Origin: a bacterium
GTDB lineage: Bacteria; Bacillota; Clostridia; Lachnospirales; Lachnospiraceae
Direction: 5' to 3'
Length of the DNA stretch: 64,000 nt
Assembly: GCA_029012425.1 (NCBI GenBank)
Contig: JAQXMB010000059.1
Coordinates: 9,645 to 73,644 of the forward strand
This document shows positions 6,748-52,399 of this stretch, one piece after another. Position 1 is the first letter of the stretch. Every line of letters begins with the position of its first letter. A model generated the notes under the pieces. That model did no database searches and was not told the origin of the DNA. It saw only the letters and a program-made list of their open reading frames with translations. A program made the position numbers and the translations under genes.

Positions 6748-6776
6748 GTTTATTTTCATCTTTCATTCACATACTA
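6748..6776 (+). promoter_or_regulatory. sigma-G-type promoter of the SASP gene
   Basis: GTTTA-17-CATACTA; alpha/beta SASP genes are established sigma-G targets. Confidence 0.65.
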
Positions 6777-6835
6777 TGTGTACCAACAGTAAATCTGTTG
6801 TTGAAATACAAAAGAATGTAATGGAGGAAACAACA

Positions 6836-7039
6836 ATGGCAAGTTCAAGAAATACTACTTCTGTACCGGAAGCTAAAGAAGCTATGAATCGTTTCAAATA
6901 TGAGGTTGCAAGCGAGCTTGGAGTACCGTTAAAGGATGGATATAACGGAGATCTTACCTCTAGACAGAATGGTTCTGTAGGTGGCTATATGGTTAAGAAA
7001 ATGATTGAAGCCCAGGAAAAACAGATGGCCGGCAAATAA
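6836..7039 (+). CDS. alpha/beta-type small acid-soluble spore protein
   Basis: FKYEVASELGV...GDLTSRQNGSVGGYMVKKMI; start at ATG 6836 after GGAGG. Confidence 0.96.
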   Translation: MASSRNTTSVPEAKEAMNRFKYEVASELGVPLKDGYNGDLTSRQNGSVGGYMVKKMIEAQEKQMAGK

Positions 7040-48164: not shown

Positions 48165-49043
48165 TTATTCTTCGTTGTGTTCGATTGTCTGCTCCGGAAG
48201 TTTTGATACCAGTACTTTGCGAATCATTTTATCCTCCACAGACAGCACTTGGAATTCATATCCCAATGCCTCCAGTCTGAAACGCTCCCCATCACTTGGA
48301 ATCTTATCAATCAGGGAAATCAAATAACCGTTGAGCGTATCAAATTCAATATCTTCAAGGCTCTCTAATCCGAGAATCTCAGAGAGATCTTCAAGCTGTG
48401 CAGCGCCATCGCACAGATAGGTTCCATCCCCTTTTTGAACGATATAATTTTCCTCTTTATCGTGCTCATCAAGAATATTACCAACAATTTCTTCCAGAAT
48501 ATCTTCTAATGCAACAAGTCCTGCCGTCTGTCCATACTCATCAATTACCACAACCATATGTGTCTTGGAAGACTGCATTTTTTTGAACAAAGCAGTAATT
48601 CCGATTGTCTCAGGAACAAAATCGACCTTTCCCATAAGCCCTTTGATATCCTTAATCGGCTGGTCCAGGCAATCCTGATTGCGCAAAATGGATAATACTT
48701 CCTTAATATGCACAAGACCCACAATATCATCCATATCCTCTATGTATACCGGAAATCGTGAAAAAGGCTGTTCAATCATCACATTCAAGGCTTCGGCAAA
48801 TGTCATGTCACCATCCAACGCACAAATCTGCTTGCGATGTGTCATAATATCCTTTGCATCCTTGTCTCCAAGTTCAAAAATGTTATGAATCATCTCTGCT
48901 TCACTCTCATGAATAAAGCCCTGCTCATGCCCCTCGTTCACAAGTGAGATGATTTCCTCCTCCGTCACATCCTCCGAATTCCGGTTGAAGAATTTCTTCA
49001 TCTTTTCAAAAAAGCCCTTACTCGGACTCCCGCCATCGTCCAT
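48165..49043 (-). CDS. CBS-pair plus CorC/HlyC domain protein (no DUF21 TM domain)
   Basis: FSRFPVY, VIDEYGQTAGLVALEDILEEIVGNI.DEHD, DTLNGY. Confidence 0.9.
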   Translation of the reverse strand: MDDGGSPSKGFFEKMKKFFNRNSEDVTEEEIISLVNEGHEQGFIHESEAEMIHNIFELGDKDAKDIMTHRKQICALDGDMTFAEALNVMIEQPFSRFPVYIEDMDDIVGLVHIKEVLSILRNQDCLDQPIKDIKGLMGKVDFVPETIGITALFKKMQSSKTHMVVVIDEYGQTAGLVALEDILEEIVGNILDEHDKEENYIVQKGDGTYLCDGAAQLEDLSEILGLESLEDIEFDTLNGYLISLIDKIPSDGERFRLEALGYEFQVLSVEDKMIRKVLVSKLPEQTIEHNEE

Positions 49044-49132
49044 ACTCTTTTCTCCTCGTATGCATCAGAAAACTATTATTTACTGTAAAACATTAGAAAT
49101 ATACCATTCCTTACGCACAAAGTCAAGAATCG

Positions 49133-49486
49133 TTACACATATGTATCCAATTCCAAACTGATGCCAAGTGCTTTATCCACTTTGCGCAATACCTCTCCAT
49201 CCAAATGACAGACCATCTCTTTGAGTCGTCGTTTGTCTATGGTACGCAGCTGTTCCAACAAAATCACAGAATCTTTGACCATATCATACCGGCTGGCAGA
49301 GAGCTCAACATGCGTCGGCAATTTTGACTTGTTTATCTGCGAGGTAATCGCTGCGACTATTACAGTCGGCGAATGTCGATTGCCAACATCATTTTGTATG
49401 ATGAGCACGGGGCGAATCCCCCCTTGCTCAGAACCAACAACCGGTCTTAAATCTGCATAATATACATCTCCTCGTCGAATCGTCAT
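49133..49486 (-). CDS. mazF: MazF/PemK (NdoA/EndoA-like) endoribonuclease, no adjacent antitoxin
   Basis: [55 protein letters not shown]. Confidence 0.95.
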
Positions 49487-49491
49487 AATTT

Positions 49492-49566
49492 CACTCCAGA
49501 AAATAATATTTGTAGGTTCTGTATCCTACTAATTCTGAAGTATTTCCAAATTCTTTGTGCTTATTC
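49492..49566 (-). promoter_or_regulatory. SD-sequestering hairpin overlapping a sigma-F/G-like promoter of mazF
   Basis: UACUUCAGAA pairs with UUCUGGAGUG (SD GGAG); GAATA-14-GGAAATACT. Confidence 0.5.
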
Positions 49567-50698
49567 AATCATACACGCGCGGAATTCTTTTTCCCATATC
49601 GCAGGCAAATTCATAATTGAATCTTCCGGAACGATTTCCGAGTTCTTCCATCGTAATTGTTTCTGCTCCATCCGATCCCAGCAAAGTTACAACATCGCCA
49701 ACCTGAACATGAGCAATATGCGTAACATCAACCATAAACTGATCCATGCAAACCCGGCCAAGAATCGGAGCACGCGTTCCTTTGATAATGACATCCCCCT
49801 TATTCGAGAGAGATCTTGCATATCCATCACCATAACCTACCGGAATTGTTGCAATAACCGTAGTCTTGTCAGTCGTATAAGTGCCGCCATAACTAATCGA
49901 ACATCCCTGCGGTAAAGTCTTCACATGTACCACCCTGCTTTTTACAGACATTAACGGTTTAAGGTCAATACGCTCCTTGTGCACTTCATCCGAAGGCCAA
50001 AGTCCATATAGCGTGATTCCTGCACGAACCAGATCCATATTGGCTTCCGGAAGATCAATAATTCCGGCGCTGTTTGAACAATGCTTCATTGCTATTTCCA
50101 CGCCGCGTGCTTCGAGATAATTTAACATCTGTCGGAAACGCTGAAGCTGCATATGGGCATGTGTTTTATCATTCTCATCGGCTTTTGCAAAATGTGTAAA
50201 GATTCCTTCTATCATTATATGCGGAAGTCTTGAAATCTGCGCTATTTCATCTGCACTTTCCTCATTTACCTGATATCCGATCCGTCCCATGCCGGTATCT
50301 ATTTTCACATGGATATTGGCCGTAACATTCATCTTTTCGGCAAGCTTTGATAATTCTGCGGCAGAATTCATATCGAAAATCGTTGCCCGAATATCATTTA
50401 CAAGCAAAATCTCGTATTGTTCCGGAAAGATATAGCCCAAAATCAGAATCGGCTTTGTCACACCGGCTTCCCGTAGCGAAACTGCCTCTTCAACAGTTGC
50501 AACCGCAAAACCATACAGATAATCAAGCGGTTCAATTTTCTGCGCAAGCGGGATTGCACCGTGACCATAACCGTCTGTCTTGATGACTGCCATCATTTTA
50601 CAATCGGGTTTTATCAACTTTCTCATCTGTTCCATATTATAGACAGCAGCATCAAGATCGACTGCCGCATATACACGAGGATATTGTGTAAGCATCAT
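49565..50698 (-). CDS. alr: Alanine racemase
   Basis: AVIKTDGYGHG PLP-lysine, KIDTGMGRIG, GRVCMDQ. Confidence 0.97.
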   Translation of the reverse strand: MMLTQYPRVYAAVDLDAAVYNMEQMRKLIKPDCKMMAVIKTDGYGHGAIPLAQKIEPLDYLYGFAVATVEEAVSLREAGVTKPILILGYIFPEQYEILLVNDIRATIFDMNSAAELSKLAEKMNVTANIHVKIDTGMGRIGYQVNEESADEIAQISRLPHIMIEGIFTHFAKADENDKTHAHMQLQRFRQMLNYLEARGVEIAMKHCSNSAGIIDLPEANMDLVRAGITLYGLWPSDEVHKERIDLKPLMSVKSRVVHVKTLPQGCSISYGGTYTTDKTTVIATIPVGYGDGYARSLSNKGDVIIKGTRAPILGRVCMDQFMVDVTHIAHVQVGDVVTLLGSDGAETITMEELGNRSGRFNYEFACDMGKRIPRVYD

Positions 50699-50705
50699 AT
50701 TACTC

Positions 50706-52244
50706 CTACTTTTCTATTATTTTCAACACATCTGCTATTGAATCAATCATGTCGTGTGCCATCAGGCTGTATCTTCCAAGCCTCTGTGCAGCAACATCTC
50801 CTGCAAGCCCATGAAGATATACACCAAACGGTGCGGCAACTTTCGGTGCCATTCCCTGTGCAATCAATCCTGCAATGACACCCGTAAGCACATCTCCGCT
50901 TCCACCGGTTGCCATACCATTATTGCCGGTCAAATTCACATATGTCATCTGATAAGGAACCGCAGTAACAGTTCTGGCGTCCTTGAGGACGCAAATCACC
51001 TGATATTCTCTCGCAAAGCTTTCTGCCGCTTCAACCAGGGAATCCTGTAAAAATGGCACTGTTGTATTTGCAAGTCTCGCCATCTCGCCCAAATGAGGTG
51101 TCAGAATAAGCTCTGTATGTGGATTTCGTAAAATTTCAATATCCTTTGCAATCAGATTTAAGGCATCTGCATCAAGAATCAACGGAACAGATGTATTTTT
51201 CAAAACGAACCTTACAAGTGTTGACGAATTGTCATCCGTTCCGATTCCCGGTCCGCATACAATTACATCCGCCCAATTGATTGCCGAATGAACCTGTTCT
51301 TTATCGAACTTCTTTGATGAATAGGTCGTTAACACTGCTTCCGGAAGTGCAGTCTGAATAATTACCCTGTTTTCTTCCGGCGTAAGCACCCGCACAAGAC
51401 CACAGCCTATGCGGTAGGCACTCCTTGCACTAAACAAAGCGGCTCCTGCCATATTAACAGAACCGGCGATCACAAGCACCTTACCATAAGATCCTTTATT
51501 TGTTCTTGGACTTCGTTTGGGAAGATATGTCTTTAAATCACCTGTTTCAAAAGCTGCGACCTTGGGGGATCGACTGATTCCATTTTCCACTAAGAAACTG
51601 TTCTCGTCGATTCCAACATTCCTGCAACGAATCTGTCCGCAAAATTTTTGTCCGGGATACAAACGCATTCCAAGCTTTTCAAAAGAAAAAGTAACCGTCA
51701 AATCTGCTTTGAAAGCAATTCCCAATACGCTTCCATCGTCGCAGTGGATGCCGCTTGGAATATCAATCGCTATCTTTTTCGCCTCTTTCCGATTCAGGCA
51801 GTCAATCATCTGTGCCATCTCGCCCTCAATGCGTCTTGATAAGCCAACTCCGAAAATCGCATCAATGATTATCGTCGCATCGTCTATAACACTATGATTC
51901 TCCATAAAAGCTTGTTTTGAAATAACCGGAATTCCATACTGCTTCACAATCTTTAATTCTGTTTTGTTTTCTTCGGTTGCTTTTTTTCCATCACCGACAT
52001 ATAAAATTGAAACAGAATGCTTTTTCAAATGAAGAAGTCTTGCCATTGCAAGTCCATCCGCTCCGTTATTTCCATTTCCCGCTACAATCAGAATGCGCTC
52101 ATTTTTCTCAATGATATCACACTCCAATTCTTCAACCGCAGCTAGCGCTGCCCGTTCAATCAAAACAAGAGATGGTATGCCAAAATACTCTATTGTATTT
52201 GTATCAAATTGTTTCATTTCACCTTTCCGAACAAGATATTTCAA
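50706..52244 (-). CDS. nnr: Bifunctional NAD(P)H-hydrate epimerase/dehydratase
   Basis: GNGNNGADG, DAIFGVG, DIPSG, NKGSYG, TGGSGDVLTG; TTG start after AGGAGG. Confidence 0.94.
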   Translation of the reverse strand: MKYLVRKGEMKQFDTNTIEYFGIPSLVLIERAALAAVEELECDIIEKNERILIVAGNGNNGADGLAMARLLHLKKHSVSILYVGDGKKATEENKTELKIVKQYGIPVISKQAFMENHSVIDDATIIIDAIFGVGLSRRIEGEMAQMIDCLNRKEAKKIAIDIPSGIHCDDGSVLGIAFKADLTVTFSFEKLGMRLYPGQKFCGQIRCRNVGIDENSFLVENGISRSPKVAAFETGDLKTYLPKRSPRTNKGSYGKVLVIAGSVNMAGAALFSARSAYRIGCGLVRVLTPEENRVIIQTALPEAVLTTYSSKKFDKEQVHSAINWADVIVCGPGIGTDDNSSTLVRFVLKNTSVPLILDADALNLIAKDIEILRNPHTELILTPHLGEMARLANTTVPFLQDSLVEAAESFAREYQVICVLKDARTVTAVPYQMTYVNLTGNNGMATGGSGDVLTGVIAGLIAQGMAPKVAAPFGVYLHGLAGDVAAQRLGRYSLMAHDMIDSIADVLKIIEK

Positions 52245-52365
52245 AACACACCTCCTATTTTTCCCAAAAATCACAGAACCTGCCACCGGCAGCATTTTTC
52301 GGATGCATGGCAACAGAGACATGAAATGAACCGGGTATTCCGTCCTGATTTGCTGACGCCATAAC

Positions 52366-52399
52366 AAAAAACTGACCGAAACGCAGCCGGTCAGTTTTT
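52366..52399 (-). terminator. Terminator after the rex operon
   Basis: AAAAACTGACCG/CGGTCAGTTTTT. Confidence 0.8.

Follow-up and report, generated by a model that had tools for sequence, protein, structure and literature searches.

Escherichia coli MazF cleaves the mazEF mRNA as a form of autoregulation, its target being the frequent triplet ACA. The MazF-mx of Myxococcus xanthus is said to be solitary and developmental, with the transcription factor MrpC reported as its antitoxin. Closest to the gene studied here are alr-ndoAI-ndoA of Bacillus subtilis (EndoAI/EndoA, or MazEF-bs) and the orthologues in Staphylococcus aureus and Clostridioides difficile, in which the same toxin family occupies the same place directly downstream of alr. 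B. subtilis-type MazF cuts at U^ACAUA, a specificity conserved over Bacillota, and at native level Bacillota MazF does not inhibit growth (bioRxiv 10.64898/2026.08.06.743204). About 25% of Bacillota mazF genes have no upstream antitoxin, so the bare absence of an antitoxin is not new; the same study leaves the reason open and cites the solitary Myxococcus MazF as a precedent (bioRxiv 10.64898/2026.08.06.743204). The C. difficile pair mazEF (CD3462-CD3461) keeps MazE and depends on sigma-E, a sporulation sigma factor of the mother cell (Saujet et al. 2013, PMC3789822). Here we analyse an antitoxin-less mazF in a 64,000-nucleotide (nt) stretch of a Lachnospiraceae genome (assembly GCA_029012425.1, contig JAQXMB010000059.1, positions 9,645 to 73,644 of the forward strand), hereafter the window. 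The description that fits the locus best is that of a domesticated EndoA-type MazF within the Lachnospiraceae sporulation gene set. Its forespore-type transcription is well supported by comparison among relatives, and a strong nucleotide-level signal on the stop codon points to self-cleavage as a putative mechanism.

The protein is a member of the MazF/PemK enzyme family and, by its sequence, of the EndoA subgroup. The PemK_toxin domain (PF02452, E = 3.2e-36) is full length, covering profile positions 1-108 of 109, and 113 residues align with the B. subtilis EndoA structures 4ME7, 4MDX and 1NE8 at about 66% identity (E = 3e-49). The motifs GGIRP (Arg25) and AAITS (Thr48) align with GGVRP and AAITA of 4ME7 and 4MDX. 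From the EndoA structures we take Arg25 and Thr48 to be the catalytic residues of the B. subtilis enzyme; both are kept, in agreement with an initial annotation of this DNA that had credited the toxin with its catalytic motifs. Within the genus, MazF identity is 91-94% for most members and 85% for the most divergent one, compared with 62-69% for Alr and 64-76% for CorC, so that mazF is strongly constrained rather than decaying; together with the intact active site, the 91-94% identity rules out a pseudogene. An in-frame extension 5' of mazF (M/L-EILQN...), seen in several relatives, is not coding: a stop closes it here and in L005, and its length varies.

On the minus strand, 78 nt separate alr from mazF. 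As the same annotation had claimed, no antitoxin lies between them: the gap holds no plausible open reading frame (ORF), its sole frame having 25 codons and overlapping the alr stop. Nor is an antitoxin ORF ever present in the alr-mazF gap of 18 species of the genus (56-134 nt), or adjoining mazF across the Lachnospiraceae loci that we fetched. Four sister families within the order have an ORF that ends where mazF starts, bears the EndoAI/MazE signature GYxEMAxINL...AECE* and matches NF041459 weakly. We built a profile, A1, from the MazE-like ORFs of these four sister-family loci, which it recovers at E 1e-30 to 1e-36. With these positive controls in hand, A1 detected no MazE homologue in the host genome, nor in any of 22 genus genomes and 24 family genomes, and NF041459 detected none in the host genome; the NdoAI/MazE homologue that might have been encoded elsewhere was thus not encountered. 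The host genome is 88% complete, and several of the 22 genus genomes are 97-99% complete. Tandem RNA repeats, as in type III (RNA antitoxin) systems, were not seen in 48800-49900 either, and PADLOC assigned none of MazF, CorC and the antisense ORF to a defence system. The locus is outside the type II MazEF module, because the antitoxin that defines this type was tested for, both next to the toxin and as a genomic MazE/EndoAI homologue, and not found.

A trace of the antitoxin gene can be recognized at the Shine-Dalgarno (SD) sequence of mazF. All loci carry GGAGTG(T)GA around it, which in relatives keeping the antitoxin corresponds to the last codons of mazE (AECE*). One sister-family locus of the order (L020:1404-1520) has a 38-codon ORF, ending ...SEVEYYIQQKIAECEE, that runs into the mazF start and is without the GYxEMA core. 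This ORF has the look of a decaying mazE 3' end and perhaps represents an intermediate stage in the loss of the antitoxin.

The presence of mazF follows that of sporulation genes; the initial annotation had suggested that mazF is expressed in the forespore. We took one genome per genus for 121 Lachnospiraceae genera, each at least 95% complete. Both spoIVA and MazF occur in 79 of them, spoIVA alone in none, MazF alone in two and neither in 40: MazF is thus in all 79 spoIVA genomes, while of the 42 that lack spoIVA only 2 have it. Sporulation loss is scattered through the family and the fit between MazF and spoIVA is close to perfect; the genomes being related, the 121 genera are not independent trials. 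The two genera with a mazF orthologue and no spoIVA match (G209 and G264, 96% and 100% complete) may have lost sporulation recently or may have gaps in their assemblies. Of the 41 nearest genomes, those of high quality that have no mazF orthologue (G006, G007, G013, G022 and G023, 93-100% complete) are exactly those without spoIVA. In two of them, G022 and G023, corC comes next after alr, across a gap of 129 and 93 nt, and no mazF is present. The host genome itself encodes sigF, sigG, sigE, sigK, small acid-soluble spore proteins (SASPs), spoIVA and spoIIR. By NCBIfam, SigG scores 434.8 bits for NF006071 (cutoff 372); SigF has TIGR02885 as its best match, slightly below cutoff (307 vs 321); SigE is above its cutoff; and SigK is above the NF004471 subfamily cutoff and below the TIGR02846 equivalog cutoff. 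We found no literature linking MazF to sporulation in Lachnospiraceae.

A forespore-type promoter precedes the gene. Its -35 element GAATA overlaps the alr stop codon (TGA, 49567-49565) and is separated by 14 nt from a -10 element GGAAATACT. This arrangement agrees with mapped sigma-F promoters of C. difficile, namely spoIIR (GAATA-14-GGACATAAT), CD0347 (GGTAAATACT) and CD2465 (GGGAATACT) (Saujet et al. 2013, PMC3789822 Table S6). We compared 110 related loci, drawn from the genus, the order and 80 Lachnospiraceae contigs and reduced to 55 sequence clusters. The pattern G[ACT]AT[AG]-N13-16-GGnnAnAnT lies at most 140 nt from mazF in 95 of the 110, while a rough estimate of its chance occurrence is about 0.003 per locus. 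Over the 55 clusters the -35 is GAATA in 35, GTATA in 17 and GCATA in 3, the spacer is 14 nt in 46 and 15 nt in 9, and the -10 is mostly GG[ACT]AATACT. The spacer sequence varies freely, and the motif keeps its position even where the alr stop is further upstream. The sigma-F/G-like promoter of the initial annotation is therefore there, in relatives as well, and only one detail of it has to be corrected: the spacer had been called about 1 nt short of consensus, whereas 14 nt is the commonest length in the family and that of C. difficile spoIIR, hence no defect.

Assignment of the promoter to the forespore sigma-F/sigma-G class is strongly supported by these motifs. Sigma-F is favoured because of the GG in the -10, the two factors not being separable here. 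Across its own genome the strict motif has 7 sites, and a looser pattern 19, which outline no clear regulon; with so few sites the motif is not calibrated on many forespore genes of the organism itself, whose spoIIR is preceded by a looser GATTA-15-GTCTACAAT. Taken with the phyletic pattern, we hold it highly probable that this antitoxin-less MazF is linked to sporulation through a forespore promoter.

Two further genes share features of the promoter. An alpha/beta-type SASP gene in the window (6776-7027, plus strand; PF00269, E = 6e-31) has a perfect sigma-G-like -10, CATACTA, just upstream, and the ATACT core of this element is common to the mazF promoter. Outside the window, on contig C48 (10075-10875, plus strand), GAATA-14-GGCAACACT stands before the gene of a 266-amino-acid membrane-anchored protein, possibly another forespore gene and perhaps SpoIIQ-like.

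The 3' end of mazF carries a second conserved signal. Of 88 unique Lachnospiraceae loci, 87 have at the very end of the ORF the hexamer UACAUA, at which B. subtilis-type MazF cuts; a contig end truncates the remaining locus. The hexamer usually takes the form NNU ACA UAA/UAG, where the preceding codon always ends in U and encodes 13 different amino acids. Threonine is written ACA in 87 of 87 cases at this place, versus 31% (124 of 402) of the other threonine codons of the same genes, and the next codon is UAA (62), UAG (22) or UAU (3), never UGA. The present ORF extends two codons past the usual form (GAU ACA UAU GUG UAA) and still keeps the hexamer. In the 55 clusters its information content is 2.0 bits per position, compared with 0.2-0.7 at neighbouring third positions and about 0.1 at downstream bases. 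A TTGAC promoter box follows at variable distance, so UACAUA is not part of it. Judged from these alignments, UACAUA is conserved at the nucleotide level. No literature describing UACAUA on a mazF stop codon was found.

Leaders of mazF mRNAs are not enriched in UACAU (2 of 88, 2.4 expected). Over both strands of the window TACATA is over-represented, with 43 occurrences compared with 26 +/- 4.7 in shuffles, none of which reaches 43, and the genome-wide numbers are 1685 vs 1563; not being depleted in either, it gives no sign of genome-wide site avoidance. In some MazE-bearing Clostridia loci (L236-L238, L147 and L149), UACAUA is found 8-11 nt past the mazF stop in a conserved short motif, e.g. 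gccTTACATAgg, which suggests a version of the stop-codon site in the 3' untranslated region (UTR).

In the leader of mazF, two arms (49542-49533 and 49501-49492) pair over 10 base pairs (bp) and bury the GGAG SD. The 5' arm overlaps the -10 and the bases up to the predicted start site and would consequently be found only in read-through RNA; two G-U pairs confine the stem to the coding strand. This stem, which had been proposed together with an inner GUAGG/CCUAC stem, is recovered where it was placed, and its 10 bp appear in both minimum free energy (MFE) and centroid folds, in a 111-nt as well as a 224-nt context. The partition function gives the SD a pairing probability of 0.92 in the long leader, compared with 0.23 in a leader starting 8 nt past the -10. 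In the short leader (49457-49510, minus strand), the U-rich run 5' of the SD is predicted to pair with mazF codons 9-14 (z = -1.74; 7 of 200 shuffles fold equally well), leaving the SD mostly open, yet enclosed. A scan of 48900-49800 against Rfam with E up to 10 returned no known RNA family, only two chance-level matches.

Over 15 distinct sequences of the genus the arms are almost invariant, while the segments between -35 and -10 and between the arms vary in sequence and length. Pairing holds in 98.7% of cells, compared with 39-65% in slid controls. The changes seen are a pair that goes from A-U to U-G, which two related sequences share, and another that goes from G-C to G-U. ACTTCAGA, past the -10, is invariant in all 15, and the 7-8 bases between the -10 and the predicted start site (TCAGAAT) are fixed, although the promoter consensus requires neither. 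At the position of the inner hairpin, relatives have small hairpins of other sequence. Beyond the genus, several lineages have post -10 bases complementary to their own SD region despite a different spelling: CUGACUGA with UCAGAUCGG, UUUUCCU with GGAGGAAAA, AUCUGC with GCAGAU and CUUCCU with AGGAAGGGAG. When the whole 5' segment is compared with 40 dinucleotide shuffles, 19 of 54 clusters rank at or below 4, where 6.6 are expected (p = 1e-5).

We now propose a scheme for the locus. Its basis is the set of genes present, their conservation and phyletic pattern and the folds predicted; from these we infer how the promoter is used, where transcription starts, that translation is masked, what MazF cleaves and that it cleaves its own message. 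A promoter of the forespore (sigma-F/sigma-G) class, set in the former place of mazE and overlapping the alr stop, would transcribe mazF. In transcripts that continue from nnr-alr into mazF, the -10 and the bases as far as the start would pair with the mazF SD, and efficient translation would come only from the short, promoter-initiated transcript. Active MazF would then cut its own message at the UACAUA of the stop codon, and the product, in this genome an mRNA without a stop, would be cleared by trans-translation; a transfer-messenger RNA (tmRNA) gene is present in the host genome. Such self-cleavage would cap MazF as an antitoxin normally does.

Overall we favour, with some reservation, an EndoA-type MazF that has lost MazE/EndoAI and been recruited as a sporulation gene under cis-acting RNA limits. 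For self-cleavage as a self-limiting feedback, the conserved hexamer would leave the chances about even. More tentative, and in our judgement somewhat doubtful, is the widest form of the idea: a stand-alone forespore RNase whose safety is wholly mRNA-encoded, by anti-SD and stop-codon cut site, the antitoxin's job being replaced in this way across sporulating Lachnospiraceae. The initial annotation had stated that RNA structure replaces the protein antitoxin. The antitoxin is indeed missing, and the stem is conserved within the genus, but the statement is incomplete: what it overlooked is the more strongly conserved UACAUA, which could limit MazF already made, something that a translational mask cannot do.

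Several observations weigh against this scheme, beginning with the stem. Its fold energy is unexceptional (z = -1.08 in the 111-nt context, z = -0.96 in the 224-nt one), so any significance has to come from conservation. Six of its 10 pairs never vary in the genus, which makes covariation weak. Across the 55 clusters, a lineage's own post -10 9-mer fits its SD little better than the 9-mers of other clusters (median rank 0.39, 29% of clusters below rank 0.2, Wilcoxon p = 0.08), and about half of the clusters, in many genera, have no post -10/SD pairing. Moreover, the shuffle test on whole segments is inflated, since the two consensus motifs alone make AUACU, in the -10, complementary to AGUGU, in the SD tail that was formerly the mazE 3' end.

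All these points suit an account in which the forespore promoter is real and the SD-masking stem incidental, the read-through RNA being translated or simply rare. The SD arm would then be SD plus mazE fossil, and the post -10 bases would be kept for the promoter, for initial transcription or as a regulator site. A dispersed binding site does not fit, since the 12-mer of the 5' arm region is unique in the genome. The account also leaves aside the invariance of ACTTCAGA in 15 sequences whose spacer and loop vary freely, the different post -10 sequences that other genera match to their own SD, and the 19 clusters of 54 that beat their shuffles. We consider it possible, although rather unlikely. 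Masking of the SD in read-through RNA is likely real in the genus and in some other genera, and the folds and alignments suggest that it is not family-wide; whether the anti-SD is functional in the present genus is, from the same evidence, roughly an even bet. With respect to covariation, which the initial annotation had looked to, the stem is kept within the genus and has one compensatory pair, but mostly shows invariance and does not extend to the whole family. The RNA switch as a whole is moderately supported.

Other points concern the cut site. Cleavage of U^ACAU(A) by the present MazF is assumed, by analogy, from its 66% identity to EndoA and from the specificity common to Bacillota. UACAUA stands at the stop or 0-1 nt past it in the antitoxin-less sister-family loci L020, L022, L030 and L031; where it falls just past the stop, a stop-less mRNA would not result, so this outcome is not universal. 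It is absent from the antitoxin-less L024, and among the four MazE-bearing sister loci it is at the stop in L026 and absent from the other three. Of 109 loci sampled through the class Clostridia, 18 have UACAUA near the stop, 7 of them in the precise form NNU ACA UAR, and loci with and without MazE are both represented. A class-wide tie between the stop-codon site and MazE loss fails: when loci are sorted by a crude motif test, UACAUA is found in 13 of 71 that are MazE-like and in 5 of 38 in which no MazE motif is detected. Its occurrence in MazE-bearing loci implies that the site predates antitoxin loss and did not arise as a replacement for MazE. Finally, C. difficile mazEF, under sigma-E and with MazE kept, differs from the present locus, where the motif is of sigma-F/G type and MazE is absent.

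The host genome is only 88% complete, which leaves room for a non-homologous or unlinked inhibitor. A protein could then still neutralise MazF, be it such an antitoxin or a regulator acting as inhibitor in the manner of MrpC, and the RNA features would be secondary. Antitoxins diverge fast, the question was left open for the 25% of Bacillota MazF that are antitoxin-less (bioRxiv 10.64898/2026.08.06.743204), and the phage proteins AimX and YosL are described as binding B. subtilis MazF (PMC10769878). We nevertheless deem this improbable: A1, which found its controls at E 1e-30 or better, detected nothing MazE-like in the 22 genus genomes, several of them nearly complete at 97-99%, the neighbours of mazF are housekeeping genes, and a single PemK-family gene in the genome implies no second toxin-antitoxin (TA) pair of this type. 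Least probable of all is that the inner hairpin and its U-run form an alr terminator, with scarce read-through RNA, mazF expressed from its own promoter only and SD pairing irrelevant. A consensus scan does call the hairpin at 49529-49512 with its U-rich tail terminator-like, and small hairpins with U-rich sequence after them occur in most relatives of the genus. Against a terminator, only 5 pairs make up the stem, the U-run is interrupted here and missing in L006, L023 and many other genera, one such site per 2 kb is no more than in shuffles (1.5 expected), and an element downstream of the promoter would stop the mazF transcript too.

The features are collected in Table 1. Each element described in the initial annotation was found at its place on checking the sequence. 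The end of nnr and the start of alr are 7 nt apart, and the Pfam scan identifies the neighbours of mazF as housekeeping genes.

Table 1. Features of the nnr-alr-mazF region, in positions of the window
Feature	Position	Strand	Description or basis
nnr	50706..52367	(-)	bifunctional NAD(P)H-hydrate repair enzyme; Pfam Carb_kinase and YjeF_N; first in nnr-alr run
alr	49565..50698	(-)	alanine racemase; Pfam Ala_racemase_N and _C
-35 element GAATA	49562..49566	(-)	sequence; fixed spacing to -10 in relatives
-10 element GGAAATACT	49539..49547	(-)	GGnnAnAnT type; sequence; conserved in related loci
5' arm (anti-SD) UACUUCAGAA	49533..49542	(-)	folds; overlaps -10 and bases up to start site
Predicted transcription start zone	49529..49533	(-)	6-10 nt past -10; inferred from mapped C. 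difficile promoter spacing
Inner hairpin, then U-rich run	49512..49529	(-)	GUAGG (49529-49525)-loop-CCUAC (49516-49512); folds; 5' end of short transcript
3' arm UUCUGGAGUG	49492..49501	(-)	contains SD GGAG (49497-49494); sequence, folds
mazF	49133..49486	(-)	EndoA/NdoA-type endoribonuclease; 117 amino acids, intact
UACAUA	49140..49145	(-)	cut site of B. subtilis-type MazF; mazF ORF 3' end, GAU ACA UAU GUG UAA
Sigma-70-like promoter	49098..49126	(-)	TTGACT-17-TATATT with TG, for CBS/CorC gene; consensus scan only
CBS-CorC_HlyC domain gene	48165..49043	(-)	Pfam; downstream neighbour conserved by synteny in genus

It has long been disputed whether the MazF of bacterial chromosomes serves as a toxin or as a regulator. 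In a major family of human-gut bacteria, we see an antitoxin-less MazF kept under strong purifying selection, and only where sporulation is kept. Three ideas are thereby made testable: that MazF is a developmental RNase in spore formation or germination, that negative feedback encoded in the mRNA substitutes for an antitoxin, and that promoter choice acts as a translational switch. In addition, mazF becomes a candidate to be added to the sporulation signature that predicts spore formation in uncultured gut Firmicutes.

Compared with alr-ndoAI-ndoA of B. subtilis, the present system has the catalytic Arg25 and Thr48 in common and the same expected cut site, U^ACAUA. It differs in that neither locus nor genome has a detected antitoxin, a forespore-type promoter replacing mazE, and in that mazF tracks sporulation genes and bears the cut site on its own stop codon. 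With C. difficile mazEF it shares a clostridial MazF under sporulation sigma control, which is predicted here from the promoter motif. As with SD-sequestering or alternative 5' UTR leaders, a 5' segment is predicted to pair with the SD in one transcript isoform only. Unlike in the known leaders of this kind, none of which it matches in Rfam, the anti-SD would be the promoter's own sequence from -10 to +1, and promoter choice, rather than ligand or temperature, would decide on masking. Like the MazF-mx of M. xanthus, it is a chromosomal mazF without cognate mazE, tied to a developmental programme; unlike MazF-mx with MrpC, it has no evident protein inhibitor, and the candidate controls are cis-acting RNA features. 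Finally, the proposed cutting of its own message as negative feedback recalls E. coli MazF, but in place of the ACA target there is one rare 6-mer, kept without variation right at the stop codon.

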